DNA from: Minisyncoccota bacterium
GTDB taxonomy: Bacteria > Patescibacteriota > Minisyncoccia > Phycocordibacterales > UBA9973
Reading direction: 5' to 3'
DNA: 47,459 bases
Assembly (NCBI GenBank): GCA_035550535.1
Contig: DASZOX010000015.1
Coordinates: 1-47,459, forward strand
Made by a program: the position numbers and the translations under genes. Numbering within the stretch: position 1 is the first letter of the stretch; every line of letters begins with the position of its first letter. Below, in pieces: positions 2,508 to 46,957 of this stretch. Below the pieces are notes generated by a model. The model had not been told where the DNA came from. It saw only the letters and a list, made by a program, of their open reading frames with translations, and did not search any database.

Positions 2508-2690
2508 TGTGTATAACAATGAGGAAATGATCTGCTTATGCTTATAAACAACTACCACAACAGAAAACGTACGGTGATTATCCAGTACCTATCCCCATCA
2601 CCGAAGTGGGAAATAGTATTTATGAAACAACGGTTTTTTGATGATTCTCCACAATTAACAGCCTATACTAAGTTAAACGAAATTTAAGCT
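2508..2690. promoter_or_regulatory. dnaA-dnaN intergenic region with DnaA-box-like motifs (candidate oriC)
   Basis: TGTGTATAA (2508-2516, reverse complement TTATACACA), TTATCCAGT (2578-2586), CTATCCCCA (2589-2597) and TTCTCCACA (2645-2653), with AT-rich stretches between them. This is a classic oriC position between dnaA and dnaN. Confidence 0.5.
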
Positions 2691-3788
2691 ATGAAAGCAC
2701 AATGTTCAGTAGAAAAATTGAAAAATGCCATCGCGCTTGCGGACCGCATGAGCGGAAGAAATCTCACCCTCCCGCTACTGCAAGCGGTACTCATCAGTGC
2801 GAAAGGAAAAAGCATCTGTGTACGGGCGACGAACTTAAATGTCGGCATTGAAATAGAGATTCCTGCAACGGTAACCCAAGAAGGTTCGGTTGTAGTGAAA
2901 GGTGATGTGGTCGCAAGTGTGTGCAGCAACCTTCCTCCTACAAACGAGGTGTTGCTTACCCTTGAAAATGACAACCTCACCTTGCAATCAGACAAAACGA
3001 CCACGGTGATAAAATCGCTTCCCGCTGAAGAATTCCCCGCACTTCCTGTGGTCGAAGGGGATACCTTTGAGATAAAAACCACTCTCTTTGAGGAAGGGGT
3101 TCGGTCGGTGGCTTTCGCTGCGGCGACGAGTGAAATAAAACCGGAAATTTCGAGCGTGTATGTGTACGCAGAAGAGGGAGTAATGACCTTTGTTGCGACG
3201 GATTCATTTCGTCTCGCCGAGAAGAAGCTCCCTATAAAAAATATTCCCGATATTTCAAAAATACTTATCCCCTATAAAAACATTGCCGACCTTTTGCGTG
3301 TGGTGGAAGTTATAGGCGACAAACTAACCGTAACCTACAGCCGCAATCAACTCTCGTTTCGTGGGGGTGGGGTGTATTTTACCTCGCGGTTGATTGATGG
3401 TGGTTTTCCTCCTTATACCCTCATCATTCCCAAAGAAGAAAACACAAAAGTGGTCGTCTTGAAACAAGACCTACTCCACACTCTCAAACTCTCCACGCTT
3501 TTTGTAGATACTTTTTTTCAAATCTCGTTTAAGGTTGATCCGGTGCAGAAACAGATAACCATTAGTTCAAAGAATAGTAATGTAGGTTCCTCGCAATCGT
3601 TGGTGGATTCAGTTATCAGCGGAGAGGCTATAGAAGTTGTCTGTAATCTCAAATATTTTCTTGATGTACTTCAGGTAGTGGCGGGAGATAGTGTTGCCCT
3701 TTCATTTACTACTCCCACCAAAGCGATCGCTATCCGAAGCGTTCAAGATAAACACTTCCTTTATCTATTGATGCCCGCTAATCGCTAG
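2691..3788 (+). CDS. dnaN: DNA polymerase III beta sliding clamp
   Basis: 365 aa. It lies directly after dnaA, has a three-domain clamp-like length, and ends in the typical LLMP motif (FLYLLMPANR). Confidence 0.95.
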   Translation: MKAQCSVEKLKNAIALADRMSGRNLTLPLLQAVLISAKGKSICVRATNLNVGIEIEIPATVTQEGSVVVKGDVVASVCSNLPPTNEVLLTLENDNLTLQSDKTTTVIKSLPAEEFPALPVVEGDTFEIKTTLFEEGVRSVAFAAATSEIKPEISSVYVYAEEGVMTFVATDSFRLAEKKLPIKNIPDISKILIPYKNIADLLRVVEVIGDKLTVTYSRNQLSFRGGGVYFTSRLIDGGFPPYTLIIPKEENTKVVVLKQDLLHTLKLSTLFVDTFFQISFKVDPVQKQITISSKNSNVGSSQSLVDSVISGEAIEVVCNLKYFLDVLQVVAGDSVALSFTTPTKAIAIRSVQDKHFLYLLMPANR

Positions 3789-6608: not shown

Positions 6609-7991
6609 TTGGTTCAAAATGTTAGAATGCACGTATCTATGGATCAGCATGCAGCTATACAGGAACTTTTGACGAAAGGTGTTTCGGAAATATTGCCGAG
6701 TAGAGAGTTTGTAGAAAGCAGACTCAAAAGCGGGCAAAAACTCACGATTTACTGTGGTTTTGACCCGACGGCGCCAACGCTCCATATCGGGCACGCGATC
6801 ACACTTCGCAAGCTCAGGCAATTTCAAGATCTTGGGCACAAGATCATTTTCCTTATCGGGGATTTTACGGCGCGTATTGGGGATCCGACGGACAAACTTG
6901 TTGCAAGAAAGCAGTTGACCGAAAAGGAAATCAAGTCTAATTTGAAGCTGTACAAAAAGCAGGCGAGTGCGCTTATTCGCTTCTCTGGAAACAATGCAGC
7001 TGAAGTGAAATTCAACAGCAAGTGGCTCGGAGAAATGGAATTTGCCGATATAGTATCTCTCGCTTCAAACTTCACCCTCGGACAAATGAAAAGAAGAGAT
7101 ATGTTTGAAAAGCGCGAACAATGGCTAGTTCGATGCGAACATTGTAATTTCGAAACAGCATCACCAATACAATTCGGATCAGAAGAAAGTTTGGAAAATG
7201 TTCAATTGGAAGGGAATACATACAAGTGTCCCAACTGTGGAAATACCAGTCCGCTTGATAAGGCACATTTAATTCCGCCTCAGCAACCAGTTTTTCTTAG
7301 TGAGTTTATGTACCCACTGATGCAGGGGTACGATAGTGTTGCGATGGACGTTGACGGTGAAGTCGGCGGCAATGATCAACTTTTTAATATGCTTGTTGGA
7401 AGAACATTGCTTAAAAAACTTAAAAACAAAGAAAAATTCGTGATCACGATGAAGCTGCTTGCAGATGCAAATGGAAAGAAAATGGGCAAAAGCGAAGGGA
7501 ACATGATCGCGCTTTCTGATACGCCGAATGATATGTACGGCAAAGTGATGAGTTGGACTGATGGAATGATTGTGCCGGGGTTTGAATTGTGCACGGATTA
7601 TTCGCTCGCTGATGTTGCTCGAGTCGAGAAAGAGCTTTCGGATGGTGTGAATCCTCGGGACCTCAAAATGAAGCTTGCGTATGAAATCGTAAGAAGTTGT
7701 TTGGGGGGAAATGCTGCGCGAAAAGCACAAGCGGCATTCGTTGAAAGATTTCAAAAAAAGGAAGGAGTGAGTGATGCGATGGAAGTGAGCGCAAATGGAC
7801 GAACATTGGAAGCGATTTTGATCGAAGAAAGTATTGTTCCGTCAAAAAGCGAGTTGCGACGACTCATTCAAGGAGGTGCGATTATGCATTTTGATACCAA
7901 AGAAAAAGTAACAGAGGCCCAGTGCAAACAGGCACCACTGTCGGGGGTTTACAAAATCGGGAAAAATAGGTTTATTGCTCTCCGCTCCTAA
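6609..7991 (+). CDS. tyrS: Tyrosine--tRNA ligase with an inserted four-Cys zinc-ribbon module
   Basis: HIGH motif (LHIGH), KMSKS motif (KMGKS) and a C-terminal S4-like domain (SELRRLIQGGAI) are present. An extra CEHC...x30...CPNC segment lies between them. Several in-frame Met start candidates exist (6609-6639). Confidence 0.93.
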   Translation: MVQNVRMHVSMDQHAAIQELLTKGVSEILPSREFVESRLKSGQKLTIYCGFDPTAPTLHIGHAITLRKLRQFQDLGHKIIFLIGDFTARIGDPTDKLVARKQLTEKEIKSNLKLYKKQASALIRFSGNNAAEVKFNSKWLGEMEFADIVSLASNFTLGQMKRRDMFEKREQWLVRCEHCNFETASPIQFGSEESLENVQLEGNTYKCPNCGNTSPLDKAHLIPPQQPVFLSEFMYPLMQGYDSVAMDVDGEVGGNDQLFNMLVGRTLLKKLKNKEKFVITMKLLADANGKKMGKSEGNMIALSDTPNDMYGKVMSWTDGMIVPGFELCTDYSLADVARVEKELSDGVNPRDLKMKLAYEIVRSCLGGNAARKAQAAFVERFQKKEGVSDAMEVSANGRTLEAILIEESIVPSKSELRRLIQGGAIMHFDTKEKVTEAQCKQAPLSGVYKIGKNRFIALRS

Positions 7992-8246: not shown

Positions 8247-9158
8247 ATGACTGTTGTCGTTGCAGGGGGGTCTGGATTTATTGGCACGCTCCTCACCCAA
8301 AAGCTACTTGCACTTGGGGATATGGTTATTGTTGTGGATCAAAAAGCACCTGTCTTCACCCATGAACACCTCTATTTTATTCAGTCGGATATAGCCACTG
8401 AACAACTCCCTTTCAATGTGCTCGAACACACCGACGCAGTGATCAATCTTGTTGGAGCTCCTCTCATGCGACGCTGGACATCAACCTACAAAAAAACTAT
8501 TCGGGATAGTCGGCTGCTGAGCACGCGGCATATTGTCGAGAGTATGCAGCGAGCCACCAATCGCCCTCCACTACTCATCAACGCTTCTGCGGTGGGATAT
8601 TATGGTGACGGCGGAGATACAGTGCTCAATGAACAGGCACCGCAGGGTAAAGGTTTTTTGGCCGAGGTAGCGGCTGAGTGGGAAAAAGAAGCGCTTCAAG
8701 CAGAGGCGTTTGGTACGCGAGTCGTGTGTGTGCGCACCGCTATAGTACTTGGTCGAGGAGAGATAGTCGCAGCGTTGACGCGCTTCGCCCCATGGAAAGT
8801 GTTTTTTGCACTTTCAAAAAAACCATTTTGGCAGCCGTGGATCCATCATGATGACATAGTGAATGTGTATCTTTTTGCACTGCAAACCTCGACGCTCCAC
8901 GGTCCGCTCAATGCGGTTGCTCCAGAGTCTGTTACCCACCAAACTTTTGTTCGCACGATTGCACAGGCACTGCGTCGACCATGGGTGCTCCCTGTTCCCC
9001 GCATAATCAAACATCTTTTCTTCAAAGAAGCGATTGAAGCAGTAGTAATGAGCGAGCGCGTTGTTCCGCAACGCCTTGTGGACAAAGGATTCGTTTTTAC
9101 TTACCCCACGCTTGCTGTCGCCGCAGCGACACTGAGAAAAGACAATGGAAAAAATTGA
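8247..9158 (+). CDS. NAD-dependent epimerase family protein (YfcH/TIGR01777-like, DUF1731 C-terminus)
   Basis: Rossmann motif VAGGSGFIGT is present. The C-terminal RVVPQRLVDKGFVFTYPTL is typical of the YfcH family. Confidence 0.8.
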   Translation: MTVVVAGGSGFIGTLLTQKLLALGDMVIVVDQKAPVFTHEHLYFIQSDIATEQLPFNVLEHTDAVINLVGAPLMRRWTSTYKKTIRDSRLLSTRHIVESMQRATNRPPLLINASAVGYYGDGGDTVLNEQAPQGKGFLAEVAAEWEKEALQAEAFGTRVVCVRTAIVLGRGEIVAALTRFAPWKVFFALSKKPFWQPWIHHDDIVNVYLFALQTSTLHGPLNAVAPESVTHQTFVRTIAQALRRPWVLPVPRIIKHLFFKEAIEAVVMSERVVPQRLVDKGFVFTYPTLAVAAATLRKDNGKN

Positions 9159-10011
9159 CCACATGCTACGCGCGTCGTCGCTCTATGAACTCATTGATTG
9201 TGGAGAGGGGCGGAAGCTTGAGCGCTTTGGTGAGGTAGTACTCGATCGTCCTGATCCGCAGGCACTGTGGCAGAGGACGCATGCGCCGGAAATCTGGAGT
9301 ACTGCACACGCACAGTTTTTGTGGGGAGAGAAAGGAGAACGATGGAAAGTGATAAAAGAACTCCCAAAAAACTGGATGGTGCGGTGGAATGACGCGGCAT
9401 TTGTGCTCACACTAAAAGAATTCAAACACATCGGACTTTTTCCAGAGCACGCGCACCAATGGGAGGAAATCGCAGCGCTTGGCAGAAAATATAACGGTTT
9501 AAAAATGCTCAATCTTTTCGGCTACACCGGCGCGGCGAGTGTTGTTGCAGCGCTTTCTAGTATTGCGGTGACGCATGTCGATGCGTCCAAACAGACGATT
9601 GAAATATTGAAAGAAAATATGAAATTGTCTGGGCTTCCAGATAATGCAATTCGAACAGTGACAGAAGATGCGCTCAAATACGCAAAGCGCCTCGTCAGTC
9701 GCAAAGAAACATTTGATATTATCGTCATGGACCCGCCGGCGTTCGGCCGTGGCCCGAAGGGAGAAGTGTGGAAGATCGAAGAAGGACTTCCGGAACTCGT
9801 GTCGTTCATTCCGAAACTCCTTCCACCAAATGCGAAACTCGTGATCCTCAACGGCTACGCATCGGGTTTCGCCCCTCGAACATTTGGAGAACTATTGCAC
9901 GATGTGTTGAAAGAAAGAAACGGAGAAATTTCGTACGGTGACATATCTTTGCAACAAAAAAATTCCGACCGTCTTTTGACAACTGGAATTTATGCCTCCT
10001 GGACAAAATAA
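9145..10011 (+). CDS. Class I SAM-dependent (rRNA-type) methyltransferase, RlmI/RlmK-like
   Basis: LNLFGYTGAASV (SAM motif I) and IIVMDPPAFGRG (motif IV, DPP) are present. It overlaps the upstream gene by 14 nt. Confidence 0.75.
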   Translation: MEKIDHMLRASSLYELIDCGEGRKLERFGEVVLDRPDPQALWQRTHAPEIWSTAHAQFLWGEKGERWKVIKELPKNWMVRWNDAAFVLTLKEFKHIGLFPEHAHQWEEIAALGRKYNGLKMLNLFGYTGAASVVAALSSIAVTHVDASKQTIEILKENMKLSGLPDNAIRTVTEDALKYAKRLVSRKETFDIIVMDPPAFGRGPKGEVWKIEEGLPELVSFIPKLLPPNAKLVILNGYASGFAPRTFGELLHDVLKERNGEISYGDISLQQKNSDRLLTTGIYASWTK

Positions 10012-30590: not shown

Positions 30591-30666
30591 TGGTGCCCCC
30601 AGCAGGATTTGAACCTGCGACCGTCTCCTTAAAAGGGAGCTGCTCTACCAACTGAGCTATAGGGGC
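30591..30666 (-). tRNA. tRNA-Lys (anticodon TTT), CCA encoded
   Basis: Hand fold: GCCCCTA/TGGGGGC acceptor, GCTC/GAGC D-stem, anticodon loop CTTTTAA, T-arm GCAGG-TTCAAAT-CCTGC, discriminator A, then CCA. Confidence 0.93.
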
Positions 30667-32950: not shown

Positions 32951-32957
32951 ATGTATG

Positions 32958-33145
32958 TGTCCTCTCGGCAGGACGCTTCGCTATCTCACTTCTGGGAAAC
33001 CCACGGTTTTCCCATTCCTTCCTCCACAGGAAACTCTTGTTTCCCGACCCCTTCCCGCCGTTCGATTCCTCGCCTTTAAGGACACAAAGTGTTACTTAGC
33101 CCTACTTAACTCAGTCTTCTGTTACTTCTTGTCCTCTCGGCAGGA
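32958..33145 (-). repeat. tRNA-3'-end-bracketed conserved element, copy A (156-nt core between 16-nt direct repeats; homologous to 46751-46957)
   Basis: TGTCCTCTCGGCAGGA occurs at 33130-33145 (inside tRNA-Arg) and again at 32958-32973. The sequence between the two copies aligns with copy B: a shared GGAATCGAAC block, two hairpins, GTGGAGGAAGG, and a nearly identical 40-nt 3' block. Confidence 0.7.
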
Positions 33146-33203
33146 ATCGAACCTGCATCACAACTTCCGCAAAGTTGCGTCCTATCCATTGAACGACGAG
33201 AGG
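33132..33203 (-). tRNA. tRNA-Arg (anticodon GCG)
   Basis: Hand fold: acceptor CCTCTCG/CGAGAGG (C1-G72), D-arm GTTC-AATGGATA-GGAC, anticodon arm CAACT-TTGCGGA-AGTTG, variable TGAT, T-arm GCAGG-TTCGATT-CCTGC, discriminator A. No CCA is encoded. Confidence 0.8.
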
Positions 33204-36151: not shown

Positions 36152-36212
36152 GGTTCAAAGATTCTACAAGGCCGTCTAAAAATGCTTTTATCTAAGCCAC
36201 AAAAACTACTAG

Positions 36213-36299
36213 CGGAAGCGGTGAGATTCGAACTCACGGTCCCCTTGCGAGGACTCCTGTTTTCAAGACAGGTGCATTCGACCACTCTGCCACGCTTCC
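36213..36299 (-). tRNA. tRNA-Ser (anticodon TGA)
   Basis: Hand fold: acceptor GGAAGCG/CGCTTCC, anticodon arm CCTGT-CTTGAAA-ACAGG, long variable arm AGTCCTCGCAAGGGGACC, T-arm GTGAG-TTCGAAT-CTCAC, discriminator G. Total 87 nt. Confidence 0.93.
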
Positions 36300-41070: not shown

Positions 41071-41116
41071 TTATATCAGAAAAGCATTTTTAAGTTTTTC
41101 GTGCTGGCACGAGCAG

Positions 41117-41188
41117 TGCCCCCGGCAGGAATCGAACCTACAATAACGGCTTAGAAGTCCGCAGTTATATCCATTTAACTACGGGGGC
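41117..41188 (-). tRNA. tRNA-Arg (anticodon TCT)
   Basis: Hand fold: acceptor GCCCCCG/CGGGGGC, D-arm GTTA-AATGGATA-TAAC, anticodon loop CTTCTAA (stem with one A-G mismatch at 31-39), T-arm GTAGG-TTCGATT-CCTGC, discriminator A. Confidence 0.85.
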
Positions 41189-41270: not shown

Positions 41271-41346
41271 GCGCTCTTAGCTCAGTTGGTAGAGCAGCGC
41301 TTTTACACAGCGAAGGTCGGGGGTTCGAATCCCTCAGGGCGCACCA
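41271..41346 (+). tRNA. tRNA-Val (anticodon TAC), CCA encoded
   Basis: Hand fold: acceptor GCGCTCT/AGGGCGC, D-arm GCTC-AGTTGGTA-GAGC, anticodon loop TTTACAC, T-arm GGGGG-TTCGAAT-CCCTC, then ACCA. Confidence 0.93.
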
Positions 41347-43829: not shown

Positions 43830-43911
43830 GCCCGAGTGGTGAAATTGGTATACACGCATCCTTGAGGTGGATGTGCCGCAAGGTGTGGAGGTTCAAGTCC
43901 TCTCTCGGGCA
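43830..43911 (+). tRNA. tRNA-Leu (anticodon GAG)
   Basis: Hand fold: acceptor GCCCGAG/CTCGGGC, anticodon arm CATCC-TTGAGGT-GGATG, long variable arm TGCCGCAAGGTGT, T-arm GGAGG-TTCAAGT-CCTCT, discriminator A. Confidence 0.93.
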
Positions 43912-44007
43912 CCGATTAAAGAACAGTGTTGTGTACTCGCACTAGAGTATGGAAAGAGGAGTTTGCAGAGGTAGTCAAAGAGTATCACTTGTTGCTACAC
44001 TTCTGAT

Positions 44008-46691: not shown

Positions 46692-46764
46692 GGGGCTTAT
46701 GGTGTAACGGTTAACACTGAGGTTTGTGGAACCTTCGATTCGGGTTCGATTCCCGATAAGCCCC
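46692..46764 (+). tRNA. tRNA-His (anticodon GTG) with encoded G-1
   Basis: Hand fold: G-1, acceptor GGGCTTA/TAAGCCC, D-arm GTGT-AACGGTTA-ACAC, anticodon arm GAGGT-TTGTGGA-ACCTT, T-arm TCGGG-TTCGATT-CCCGA, discriminator C pairing with G-1. Confidence 0.93.
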
Positions 46765-46957
46765 CAATAGAGTTCCCCTTGTTAGGAAGGGTATTGGGGG
46801 CAACAACAAATATGGTTTGTTGTTGGAATCGAACCGGGAAAGGATTGGAAAACGGGAGTTTTCCGTGGAGGAAGGCAGCCCGAGCTTGCCGAGGGCGTTG
46901 GAAAACCATGGGTTTCCAAAGAGTGAGATAGCGAAGCGTCCCGATAAGCCCCCAATA
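46751..46957 (+). repeat. tRNA-3'-end-bracketed conserved element, copy B (169-nt core between 19-nt direct repeats; homologous to 32958-33145)
   Basis: TCCCGATAAGCCCCCAATA occurs at 46751-46769 (inside and just after tRNA-His) and again at 46939-46957. The interior shares blocks and hairpins with copy A. Confidence 0.7.

Follow-up and report, generated by a model that had tools for sequence, protein, structure and literature searches.

A ~160-nt element behind a tRNA-Arg gene belongs to an apparently undescribed family of target-matched, probable insertion elements in Patescibacteria

IS110/IS1111 elements carry within the mobile DNA a structured non-coding RNA of ~100-180 nt, the bridge RNA or seekRNA, whose variable segments complement the target. 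One scaffold thereby serves many targets, and the element's own end is also read by pairing. The IS200/IS605 elements (PATE, TnpB omega-RNA) follow a strand-specific, single-stranded logic: an internal guide beside a hairpin base-pairs with the target and with the element end and so identifies both. They have non-autonomous derivatives, and in the omega-RNA the right-end scaffold abuts the flanking target. In CTXphi attP(+) and integron attC, an imperfect hairpin of inverted copies with an unpaired centre imitates a duplex site, and exchange of one strand by a host or unlinked recombinase, followed by replication, gives the integrated form. Integrative elements of tRNA and tmRNA genes, and CIMEs, insert between the T-loop and the gene 3' end or at the 3' ends of ribosomal-protein genes; they supply a replacement gene end, leave direct repeats and accrete in tandem. 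Finally, group I and group II introns contain an antisense sequence whose pairing with the target reaches to either side of the insertion point, and they home to conserved genes including those for tRNA.

We describe here an element of ~160 nt, copy A, that lies 3' of a tRNA-Arg gene in the window, i.e., the whole stretch of 47,459 nucleotides that was analysed. It appears to be one member of an undescribed insertion-element family of Patescibacteria (CPR). On the sense strand the family order is an intact gene including the proximal repeat of its end (X), a spacer, an antisense segment (X'), a scaffold, an altered target mimic and a distal repeat of X, after which the native flank follows, as found by comparing two loci (L047 and L053). 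We suggest, with a probability of roughly 50%, that this is a non-autonomous insertion element guided by nucleic-acid pairing, which would work through a folded single strand (ssDNA or RNA) and an unlinked enzyme. The proposed mechanism is inferred from the anatomy of the sequences.

The family shares the features listed above with the described systems, the RNA form, the recognition of target and element end by pairing and the single-strand exchange by a host or unlinked recombinase being proposed on the side of the element, and differs from each of them in other respects. IS110/IS1111 elements encode a DEDD/serine recombinase, and bridge RNAs have two internal loops with short split guides, a 2-nt core and no long duplication, whereas the present element encodes nothing and has one continuous antisense segment, a target mimic in cis and a gene-end repeat of 14-55 nt. 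It does have segments that complement each of the two target strands, but these form a helix together instead of being presented in internal loops, and it has no sequence or Rfam similarity to IS110/IS1111. In IS200/IS605 the guide is 4 nt and the target motif 4-5 nt, there is no duplication, and TnpA/TnpB genes are present; here the guide is ~10-25 nt, the gene end is duplicated, and neither a TnpA (Y1 HUH) nor a TnpB gene was found near the copies or in the window. No match to an Rfam omega-RNA or HEARO was found in the window, in both copies or in eight loci. CTXphi and attC imitate one fixed sequence (dif, R/L boxes) that is read by XerCD or IntI. In contrast, the sequence imitated here follows the target, with no dif-like or GTTRRRY requirement at non-tRNA targets, and the conserved part is a three-way junction outside the mimic. 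The unpaired centre does occur: the helix of X' and mimic is broken by a patch of 1-5 nt or by an inserted mini-hairpin. As in the attL/attR of integrative elements and CIMEs, an identity block at the gene 3' end restores the gene; those elements, however, are kilobases long or deletion derivatives, an integrase sets their specificity, and both the antisense segment and a conserved folded scaffold are missing from them. Compared with group I/II introns, the element has no catalytic core or Rfam match, it is smaller than known self-splicing introns, and the duplicated exon end makes splicing unneeded. There are also no terminal inverted repeats of the element's own, and the length of the repeats depends on the target, unlike in a MITE. 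The features of copy A and of a second copy in the window, copy B, are as follows.

33131..33203, minus strand: intact tRNA-Arg(GCG), target of copy A (ARAGORN; Rfam tRNA, 59.8 bits); its last 16 nt are in the proximal repeat
33130..33145, minus strand: proximal repeat X of copy A, from T60 to the tRNA 3' end plus CA; exact 16-nt direct repeat
33087..33129, minus strand: spacer of copy A, with promoter-like site absent (sequence and family comparison)
33060..33086, minus strand: antisense segment X' of copy A (inverted repeats against the target)
33079-33086, minus strand: X' part TGTGTCCT, antisense to the acceptor end and 2 nt of native flank
33060-33070, minus strand: X' part AGGAATCGAAC, antisense to the T-loop and the start of the T-stem
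33046..33059, minus strand: junction strand 1 of copy A, GGCGGGAAGGGGTC (family alignments; consensus aGGAArGGGGUC)
33029..33045, minus strand: hairpin 1 of copy A, GGGAAAC-AAGA-GTTTCC (covarying helix 4/5)
33017..33028, minus strand: junction strand 2 of copy A, TGTGGAGGAAGG, with GGAGGAAGG nearly invariant (alignment A2 columns)
32993..33014, minus strand: hairpin 3 of copy A, TGGGAAAACC-GTG-GGTTTCCCA; the foot pairs covary (helix 6, columns 192-193 with 244-245)
32974..32989, minus strand: right end of copy A, T-loop mimic GTGAGAT and then the inserted AGCGAAGCG
32975-32981, minus strand: GNA-triloop mini-hairpin GCGAAGC inside AGCGAAGCG of copy A (mini-hairpin enrichment)
32956..32973, minus strand: distal repeat X of copy A plus CA (X = 32958-32973); pairs with X'; putative displaced native tRNA 3' end
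46693..46769, plus strand: tRNA-His (46693-46765), target of copy B, with the proximal repeat (46751-46769) (ARAGORN; direct repeat)
46770-46790, plus strand: spacer hairpin of copy B (inverted repeats)
46791-46801 and 46825-46834, plus strand: bipartite X' of copy B, GTATTGGGGGC and GGAATCGAAC (inverted repeats)
46802-46824, plus strand: hairpin of 23 nt that splits X' of copy B (coordinates from sequence)
46835..46922, plus strand: scaffold of copy B (cmsearch, 109.8 bits), beginning with junction strand 1
46847-46864, plus strand: hairpin 1 of copy B, within the scaffold
46865-46875, plus strand: GTGGAGGAAGG of copy B, within the scaffold
46876-46897, plus strand: optional hairpin 2 of copy B, within the scaffold
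46898-46919, plus strand: hairpin 3 of copy B, within the scaffold
46923-46938, plus strand: right end of copy B, GTGAGATAGCGAAGCG (sequence)
46939-46957, plus strand: distal repeat of copy B, an exact 19-nt copy of 46751-46769

A preliminary description of copy A, made from the letters of the window, proved to be real at its coordinates; each of its concrete statements was verified, and the observation extends to the family. The duplicated tRNA 3' end, TCCTGCCGAGAGGACA, is exact at 33130-33145 and 32958-32973 with 156 nt between, and by our own estimate ~1e-4 exact 16-mer pairs at most 800 nt apart would be expected by chance. The spacers of copies A and B, which had been called homologous, do align. 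They have in common the block GGAATCGAAC, an inverted repeat with the T-loop, as well as GTGGAGGAAGG and both hairpins, and a recount from the alignment gives the same 35 of 40 identities in the 3' 40-mer. The 8-mer TGTGTCCT (33079-33086) is indeed complementary to 32956-32963, 2 nt past the repeat. There are exactly two occurrences of GTGAGATAGCGAAGCG in the window, with 0.4 chance matches expected at up to 3 mismatches. The paired A/T insertion and the G-C to T-A change between the hairpins of the two copies are borne out by covariation across the family. The distal tRNA copy in A starts 7 nt earlier than noted: GTGAGAT is a degenerate GTTCGAT of the T-loop (TC changed to GA), which pairs with AATCGAAC of X', and AGCGAAGCG follows it. 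For the right end, RNAalifold gives the pairs 26-28/178-180 and 31-32/174-175.

The insertion point of copy A is in the tRNA T-loop, between T59 and T60, and two of the seven window tRNAs bear the element. In an excised circle the right end, ...GATAGCGAAGCG, would be joined to TCCTGCC and on to the spacer with no tRNA body before it, and an empty site would read tRNA and then directly CACATACATAAAAAAGCCCC. Because X' is interrupted in both window copies, by 8 unmatched nt in A and the 23-nt hairpin in B, these copies may be old and inactive. Between tRNA and X', no promoter and no terminator-like site was detected in either window copy, and the latter makes co-transcription with the tRNA possible. 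All contigs of the same population are identical to the window, with no strain-level presence/absence polymorphism seen among them. Some further candidates were discarded: a third copy of the tRNA-His 3' end near 14.3 kb is a chance match within a gene, a short peptide after the SD-like GGAGG shifts frame with the optional hairpin 2 in the alignment, and the stretch of a supposedly customised CGGCGGGA/TCCTGCCG pairing in copy A is the family junction strand.

More than 170 copies of the family were found, some in genome bins of Patescibacteria and others on taxonomically unassigned metagenome contigs. Of 54 genome matches 53 are true copies, all within Patescibacteria genome bins, and a metagenome scan gave at least 120 further loci. 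The elements are non-coding and ~130-200 nt long, a length in which no ORF fits, and the copies score 40-150 bits with the covariance model. At the gathering threshold, Rfam 15 matched only tRNAs in the whole window, and only tRNAs were matched at E up to 10 on copies A and B and at E up to 0.5 on eight loci. Weak YrlA and tmRNA-like Rfam matches stem from the tRNA portion. No match was found in phage and plasmid collections, nor for the composite pattern in viral contigs; the 20 matches to the 16-mer in viral contigs are all due to chance, within coding regions. Among the papers searched, on insertion into tRNA genes in Patescibacteria, on RNA-guided recombinases, on bridge RNA elements of the non-autonomous kind and on structured RNAs, none was relevant.

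The insertion sites are inside the ends of conserved, mostly translation-related genes. The upstream gene is a same-strand tRNA or tmRNA wherever ARAGORN detects one, with some loci having none within 450 nt. Not every copy sits 3' of a tRNA. Apart from T-loops, the same scaffold serves tmRNA and the tRNA acceptor strand as well as three ribosomal-protein genes (the rpmG, rpsI and rplK 3' ends) and the rnhA 5' end. On one contig, a tRNA-targeted copy (L142) and an rpmG-targeted copy (L172) have cores that are 94% identical. The polarity of the element always matches the sense strand of the target gene. The gene is kept whole by the proximal repeat, a copy of its end that comes directly after the junction and often includes a terminator. 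X' is complementary across the family to the uninterrupted target on both sides of the junction. Both X' and the repeats match the local target, every copy having its own antisense segment. The preliminary comparison to a scaffold-plus-variable-3'-segment guide RNA was partly right, but the 3' segment is, on our reading, the displaced target itself, and the guide-like part is the 5' X', which pairs with that target. Most direct repeats measure 14-25 nt; the longest, with the terminator counted in, has 55 nt. Where the repeat runs on into trailer and terminator, as in L038 (55 nt) and L163 (35 nt), it could alternatively be a target-site duplication made at insertion. The spacer is variable and often holds a terminator-like hairpin, as many copies do between gene and X', or an xC(GNA)Gx' mini-hairpin; in some copies, e.g., L037 and L036, X, terminator and X' form near-perfect long palindromes. 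The mimic is short and carries the 1-5-nt patch of altered bases and/or a GNA-triloop mini-hairpin, and X' pairs with the mimic and the distal repeat, so that the resulting hairpin looks like the double-stranded target apart from mismatches at its centre. The sequence before the junction differs between targets, and the junction-adjacent helix is GAAC/GTTC only at T-loop targets, GCAG/CTGC at rpmG and GTGG/CCAC at rpsI. A tRNA-like minihelix or aminoacylatable mimic was rejected, since in many copies X' pairs only with the T-stem part.

The scaffold is a conserved, covarying three-way junction that is closed by the helix of X' with the target mimic. Across 105 copies, 92.9% of cells are paired in the covariation check on the hairpins, with at most 64% in slid controls, and there are 387 double-change cells versus 117 in shuffles. 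The covariation includes the target-dependent helix. The helices covary freely, with GC, AU and CG at one position, and G.T pairs are present. The sense strand folds better than the antisense strand in 108 of 145 cores. In hairpins 1 and 3, G.T outnumbers A.C by 20 to 4 in alignment A2, an asymmetry that is weak, at 21 to 15, on the larger alignment. The sequences support the view that the scaffold helices would form in a single strand and are not protein-binding duplex sites. The sense strand is rich in xC(GNA)Gx' mini-hairpins, with 3.85 per kb compared with 0.61 for the antisense strand and 1.08 for the flanking DNA, and the values in an unbiased metagenome subset are 2.63 and 0.83. Such GNA-triloop mini-hairpins are exceptionally stable as DNA and far less so as RNA, and they mark single-strand initiation sites (PMC13037366). 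Their enrichment on the sense strand, together with this DNA-specific stability, hints at an ssDNA intermediate.

Several comparisons between loci speak for mobility. Empty orthologous loci, whose existence had been raised as a check, do occur. At the same locus (up-gene, tRNA-Arg(GCG), S20, RuvA), L109 is filled and L069 is empty; different right-end sub-families sit at this locus, and an element follows up-gene and tRNA-Arg(GCG) in more than 10 divergent genomes. Behind the same tRNA-Pro, type-1 and type-2 elements stand in tandem but in opposite order in L047 and L053, with the native flank after the last repeat. The two gene ends of the rpmG copies encode an identical peptide with many synonymous differences, as is expected if one end arrived with the element from another lineage. 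The flanking protein is 25-60% identical while the scaffold stays recognisable at 80-150 bits. Within-genome copies are usually no more similar than between-genome copies, so within-genome similarity is no general sign of recent bursts, which are not evident, and scaffold conservation could reflect host function. In the window, copies A and B are on opposite replication strands, with dnaA and dnaN at the window start. Thus, a simple lagging-strand-template insertion rule as in IS200/605 fails.

A partner enzyme does not show up beside the copies. Among 1504 ORFs within ~4 kb of 168 copies, there is no recombinase cluster. Clustering of the neighbourhoods gave housekeeping families and a LAGLIDADG cluster in 8 loci; the latter was rejected as partner because its position and orientation are inconsistent and the genes are outside the element. 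In L148, L152 and L138 they precede the target tRNA, and in L107 and L177 they come after the element. The statement that the window holds no recombinase was upheld by a Pfam search of 50 window ORFs (most of the 53 larger ones), which gave only the housekeeping RuvA, RuvB, RuvC and RuvX. The window genes are of the housekeeping kind, with a type IV pilus ATPase and PilM also encoded.

We propose that the folded single strand would be bound at the conserved junction by an enzyme encoded elsewhere, and that target choice would be made by X', through its complementarity to the gene's sense strand. Single-strand exchange just right of the patch would then yield the observed order of gene, X, spacer, X', scaffold, mimic, X and flank, with the junctions before the first X and after the mimic. 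The proximal repeat would be borne by the element and complete the gene, and the distal repeat would be the displaced native gene end; by sequence alone, the reverse assignment is indistinguishable. In the version that we prefer, the single strand may be an ssDNA circle, with the complementary strand primed at a mini-hairpin. This is by analogy with single-strand integration of CTXphi and integron attC and with DNA-guided target choice in IS200/605, though an RNA guide in the style of bridge RNAs is about equally likely. Taken further, and only tentatively, the elements could be mobile single strands of ~150 nt (ssDNA or RNA) with no protein gene, programmable by pairing through a guide (X'), a mismatched mimic and a replacement gene end. 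An unlinked and possibly host-encoded enzyme, recruited by the three-way junction, would insert them into any sequence that X' fits. Nucleic-acid-guided recombination of this kind would belong with none of CRISPR-associated transposons, OMEGA systems or IS110 bridge RNAs but would be a class by itself, and a new one.

The pairing-guided insertion has to be weighed against readings that explain part of the data. The elements could be a host-functional structured RNA, a conserved X'-scaffold-X ncRNA made as the 3' trailer of tRNA or mRNA or from a separate promoter. The transcript of the adjacent gene would then be the substrate on which the antisense segment and the tRNA-like 3' end work (in processing, quality control, decoying or stabilisation, for example); inheritance would be vertical, and the match to the gene would be held by selection or gene conversion. 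The covariation, which shows a structure under selection, a scaffold far better conserved than the neighbouring proteins, the constant polarity, the occupation of one tRNA-Arg(GCG) locus across divergent genomes, the lack of burst-like similarity within genomes and the lack of a terminator-like site before X' in the window copies all agree with it. We nevertheless consider it unlikely, given the empty orthologous sites and different sub-families at one site, the presence on only two of the seven window tRNAs, the tandem arrays in differing orders, the terminator-like hairpin between gene and X' in many copies, duplicated protein-gene ends that differ only synonymously, and targets as unrelated as T-loop, acceptor strand, tmRNA, three ribosomal-protein mRNA ends and the rnhA 5' end. 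The earlier proposal of co-transcription of a structured RNA with the tRNA is supported as far as a folded single strand in the sense of the tRNA is concerned, which may be RNA or ssDNA; a purely host-functional RNA is disfavoured by the presence/absence pattern and target variety. Also rather unlikely is an integrase-type site, an attP-only remnant or CIME-like, cis-mobilisable mini-element of tyrosine-integrase elements in which the scaffold would be arm-type protein-binding DNA. The integrases of Streptococcus ICEs have the same target repertoire, and the gene-restoring block from the T-loop to past the gene end, the use of tmRNA and the 3' ends of rpsI and rpmG, and tandem accretion behind one tRNA would all be expected. 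However, no integrase is found in the element, within ~4 kb of 168 copies or in the window; core sites read by a protein would not permit one scaffold with many unrelated cores; freely covarying helices and G.T pairs are unexpected for duplex protein sites; the antisense segment and mismatched mimic would have no role in a duplex attP; and the patch falls inside the would-be T-loop overlap region. The earlier suggestion of a miniature site-specific-recombination element survives in outline (gene-restoring identity block, filled and empty sites, tandem arrays, tmRNA and ribosomal-protein targets), and its classic tyrosine-integrase att footprint does not, with one scaffold at many unrelated targets with matched antisense and helices that covary as a single strand.

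Movement at the RNA level, by a small ribozyme or intron-like RNA or a non-autonomous retroelement, is quite improbable. X' would be an internal guide or exon-binding sequence and the distal repeat a primer-binding or 3'-exon sequence, with reverse splicing or target-primed reverse transcription by an unlinked RT. X' does span the junction like a group I internal guide sequence or the group II EBS/delta pairing, the conserved junction strands, set between helices that covary, are reminiscent of a small core for catalysis or protein binding, and the X/terminator/X' palindromes of L037 and L036 could arise by snap-back synthesis. The targets, always in sense polarity, are tRNA, tmRNA and ribosomal-protein genes and rnhA, most of which are expected to be highly transcribed. 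Against this, the ribozyme and intron models of Rfam gave no match even with E allowed up to 10, no reverse transcriptase was found among the ORFs neighbouring the copies, the duplicated exon end makes splicing needless and is not produced by known introns, X' matches genomic trailer bases rather than the CCA-ended mature tRNA, and GNA triloops are a stability motif of DNA rather than RNA (PMC13037366). Highly improbable, in our view, is passive spread by natural transformation and homologous recombination with no dedicated enzyme, the scaffold having an unrelated function or none. Since both homology arms lie inside a universally conserved gene, any allele still empty could receive the insertion by copying; the insert does lie between direct repeats of the conserved gene end, and the cross-lineage pattern fits conserved sites that were colonised again and again. 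Genes for DNA uptake are common in CPR bacteria, and the window encodes the pilus proteins named above. But the right arm is only 14-20 nt, which is very short for RecA-type recombination, and the retargeting of one scaffold to unrelated genes, the antisense segment and mismatched mimic, and the selection seen in scaffold covariation would all go unexplained.

If pairing-guided insertion is correct, these would be among the smallest known site-specific mobile elements, and target choice would be encodable in ~15-25 nt of a non-coding element without an enzyme of its own. It would explain how the minimal CPR genomes tolerate insertions in essential tRNA, tmRNA and ribosomal-protein genes, and the element would be a marker of horizontal DNA flow among CPR lineages. 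The target mimic in cis may serve to tell self from non-self or as an on/off switch. A compact scaffold for pairing-directed insertion would be of direct technological interest when its partner enzyme has been found. If the elements are a host RNA instead, they would be a widespread, strongly covarying class outside Rfam that is tied to tRNA 3' ends and worth describing. The right ends also fall into sub-family variants, namely GTGAAAT, GTTC plus patch, GCGTAGC and GCGGAGC.

The elements behind two tRNA genes of the window belong to a widespread, strongly structured and target-customised family of gene-restoring mini-insertions, and this much is established. Two of the seven window tRNAs carry the element, and both were called by ARAGORN and Rfam. 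Copy A lies 3' of tRNA-Arg(GCG) and copy B 3' of tRNA-His, each bracketed by a direct repeat (X) of the gene end.

33131-33203, minus strand: tRNA-Arg(GCG)
33130-33145 and 32958-32973: exact 16-nt repeat TCCTGCCGAGAGGACA of copy A, 156 nt between
46693-46765, plus strand: tRNA-His
46751-46769 and 46939-46957: exact 19-nt repeat of copy B

The two spacers can be aligned and have in common GGAATCGAAC, GTGGAGGAAGG and two hairpins. The 16-mer GTGAGATAGCGAAGCG, which occurs exactly twice in the window, directly precedes the distal repeat in both copies. As the preliminary description had it, GGAATCGAAC repeats the T-loop region in inverted orientation, and the 8-mer TGTGTCCT within copy A is complementary to the distal junction, including 2 bases past the repeat; its repeats and shared spacer blocks were also right, as judged by the tRNA calls, exact repeats and spacer alignment. 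This pattern of repeat and spacer is far beyond chance. In the predicted fold of both copies, pairing of the internal antisense pieces with the distal repeat closes a multi-branched structure; the antisense segment (X') is interrupted in both.

Neither element-bearing tRNA encodes a 3' CCA, nor do tRNA-Arg(TCT), tRNA-Ser and tRNA-Leu (41116-41188, 36212-36299, 43830-43913), while tRNA-Lys and tRNA-Val do (30591-30666, 41271-41346). The element repeats and X' match genomic trailer bases, not CCA. Two same-population Logan contigs from independent short-read assemblies, otherwise 100% identical to the window, end at 33172 and 32901, inside or just past the tRNA-element unit, as expected for repeated sequence.

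A scan of the genome collection with GGAAGG-N20-50-GTGAGATAGCGAAGCG returned 54 loci, 53 of them true copies. All 53 are in Patescibacteria/CPR genome bins (Yonath-, Nomura-, Wolfe-, Kaiser-, Taylor-, Vogel-, Lloyd- and Azambacteria, Paceibacterota), and a metagenome scan that left the 3' block unconstrained added at least 120 loci. A covariance model built from 49 copies recovers family copies at about 40-150 bits and finds only copies A and B in the window. As far as seen, this is a large family confined to Patescibacteria. The Rfam search proposed in the preliminary description found no matching family in Rfam 15, and there was no match in IMG/VR, in the phage and plasmid collections or in the literature searched.

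The order of parts is constant in every copy when taken along the sense strand of the adjoining gene.

1, target gene, intact
2, spacer, in which a terminator-like hairpin is frequent, or else a small hairpin of the form xC(GNA)Gx', e.g. ACGAAGT
3, X', antisense match to the uninterrupted target, extending to either side of the junction
4, junction strand aGGAArGGGGUC
5, hairpin 1
6, GUGGAGGAAGG
7, hairpin 2, optional
8, hairpin 3
9, 1-2 bases
10, copy of a short target stretch lying left of the junction
11, patch: a few bases unlike the native target, or an inserted mini-hairpin
12, gene end, direct repeat
13, native flank

In the window's sub-family, parts 10 and 11 read GTGAGAT then AGCGAAGCG, where GTGAGAT differs from the T-loop GTTCGAT by GA in place of TC. 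Other sub-families have GTGAAAT-A, mirroring a TTCAATT T-loop, or GTTC followed by T, TT, AT, CA and similar, and those at rpmG have CTGC-TTG or CTGC-TAACG. In many copies X' is a perfect match to the native target, and a small internal mismatch remains when it pairs with the element's own downstream target copy. The repeats are mostly 14-25 nt; the longest, of 35-55 nt, take in trailer and terminator. Hairpin 1 carries insertions of 25-90 nt in some copies (loci L062:208-370, L052:1604-1769, L063:1579-1761, L109:1057-1231 and L163 about 9100-9263), with GTTTACGTCCAAGACGCGAATCAGCTGATTC common to L052 and L062, which suggests that extra modules may be tolerated, or recruited, there.

The fold is real and strand-specific. 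Across 105 copies, 92.9% of cells are paired and both sides have changed in 387 cells, compared with 117±8.5 in shuffles, and slid controls reach at most 64% paired; the hairpins noted at the outset are therefore borne out as covarying structure. The junction-adjacent helix (GAAC/GUUC at T-loop targets) covaries as the target changes. The sense strand gives the better fold in 108 of 145 distinct cores (mean advantage 2.0 kcal/mol). In hairpins 1 and 3, the counts of G.T versus A.C are 20 versus 4 in A2, the first family alignment, and only 21 versus 15 in the larger alignment. Invariance of GTGAGATAGCGAAGCG in A2 is partly by construction, since the search pattern demanded it, and the same holds for GGAGGAAGG and hairpin 3 in the metagenome set.

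Most copies lie 3' of a same-strand tRNA, Arg isoacceptors foremost, then Gly, Pro, His, Glu, Gln, Leu, Met, Ala, Lys and Ile, and tmRNA is the upstream gene of three. The same core is also found in a tRNA acceptor 3' strand (anticodon-loop sequence CTCTTAAG, repeat GGGCGGACA), within the final codons of rpmG (L33), rpsI (S9) and rplK (L11), and near the rnhA start. In the rpmG copies both gene ends encode one peptide (e.g. WCRKQTVHKEAKK and stop) and differ at most synonymous positions, as expected if the element brought one end along from another lineage, the other being the displaced native end. Two copies on one contig, L142 at a tRNA and L172 at rpmG, have cores 94% identical; judged by this likeness, a single scaffold has evidently been retargeted between them.

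The order up-gene, tRNA-Arg(GCG), element, S20, RuvA at copy A is syntenic in more than 10 divergent genomes. Orthologues of this locus, which the preliminary description had proposed to compare, include an empty site (L069) and a filled one whose tRNA differs by 2 bases (L109); a second kind of element, type 2, sits there in L027, and other lineages have differing right-end sub-families. Behind one and the same tRNA-Pro, the order is tRNA, type 1 (the main family), X, type 2, X in L047, and tRNA, type 2, X, type 1, X, type-1 stub, X in L053, the last repeat being followed by native flank in both. At L053:4391-4430, a solo right-end block (GAGTGAGATAGCGAAGCG) precedes a third, slightly decayed tRNA-Pro 3' end and resembles the remaining stub of an earlier type-1 insertion.

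The element is too small to hold a gene. Among 1504 ORFs within about 4 kb of 168 copies, clustering yielded housekeeping families only, apart from LAGLIDADG genes in eight loci (L063, L077, L107, L138, L148, L152, L174, L177). These genes are free-standing ORFs of about 180-230 aa adjoining element-bearing tRNA genes. They are never within the element and their position is inconsistent: L148, L152 and L138 have the gene upstream of the target tRNA, whereas in L107 and L177 it comes downstream of the element. The L138 tRNA has an insertion of about 250 nt past the anticodon-stem region (about 1900-2260 of the reversed locus, minus-strand orientation) that looks like an intron. That the window holds no recombinase has stood: a Pfam scan of 50 ORFs, among them the majority of the 53 larger ones, identified dnaA, dnaN, RuvABC, PolA, genes for type IV pili, ribosomal proteins and the like, with no transposase or integrase.

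Since the imitated sequence varies with the target while the scaffold is constant, we infer that the target is recognised by X' pairing rather than by a sequence-reading protein. The hairpin of X' and target mimic would imitate a duplex target whose centre is unpaired, which is how folded single-strand recombination sites are built; integron attC sites behave in a similar way (PMC4792948). One strand would be exchanged between folded circle and target just right of the patch, with the conserved purine-rich junction as an obvious handle for an unlinked enzyme. The predicted product, gene.../X-spacer-X'-scaffold-mimic/X-flank, has exactly the order observed in the copies. The most recent insertion would be the one closest to the gene, in agreement with the tandem arrays.

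The active strand may be single-stranded DNA. This is hinted at by the xC(GNA)Gx' mini-hairpins, at 3.85/kb on the sense strand versus 0.61 antisense and 1.08 in flanks (2.63 and 0.83 in the unbiased metagenome subset), with GCGAAGC, GCGGAGC, GCGTAGC, ACGAAGT and CCGAAGG enriched on the sense strand; C-G-closed GNA triloops make up 19 of 58 hairpin-2 loops. Such mini-hairpins have extraordinary stability in DNA form and far less in RNA form, and are found at primase single-strand initiation sites and a single-stranded phage promoter (PMC13037366). About equally likely is an RNA guide acting in the manner of a bridge RNA: co-transcription with the tRNA is possible in the window copies, though no promoter was found there between tRNA and X'. 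With dnaA (1146-2507) and dnaN (2691-3788) at its left end and mostly positive plus-strand GC skew, the window is origin-proximal on one replichore; copies A and B are on opposite replication strands, which disfavours a simple IS200/605-like rule.

Whether the guide acts as DNA or RNA, we infer that the element works like a guide-bearing mobile element. Its logic echoes the IS110 bridge RNA or seekRNA, the IS200/605 internal guide and the guide sequences of group I and II introns, its fold echoes CTXphi and attC sites, and its target repertoire is that of integrative elements. In contrast to these families, it lacks any recombinase, HUH or TnpB gene, a catalytic core and a fixed core site, and its gene-end duplication is long. 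Because the defining features that could be tested failed for each, we file it under none of them. Of the earlier readings, a miniature site-specific-recombination element agrees in outline with the gene-restoring insertion and the filled and empty sites, whereas a classic tyrosine-integrase footprint does not fit a single scaffold serving many unrelated targets; a guide-RNA-like layout is partly right, with X' as the guide-like segment.

Type 2 is a second family of small tRNA T-loop elements, with no Rfam match and none in the window.

L026 about 2690-2900, minus strand: type 2
L053:4086-4254: type 2
L047, downstream of its type-1 copy, minus strand: type 2
L064:729-787: type 2, interrupting a distal repeat
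L027:2560-2800, minus strand: type 2
L177 about 7700-7798: type 2

Its layout is an antisense T-loop segment, GGCGGGGTCGAGAGTACTT, a long hairpin, TAACTCGTGAC and a tRNA 3' copy beginning at C56 (CGATTC...). The GGGGTCG motif and the overall logic are as in type 1, with which it stands in tandem in either order. A purine-rich motif around ACGAAGTGAGG or GAGTGAGCGGAGCGAACGAAGTG, absent from copies A and B, lies directly 3' of proximal and distal tRNA ends in the spacers or distal flanks of many loci (e.g. L142, L093, L122, L165, L166, L169). Within this motif are GNA-triloop mini-hairpins, one or two in number, whose stems covary (ACGAAGT, CACGAAGTG, TACGAAGTA, CCGAAGG).
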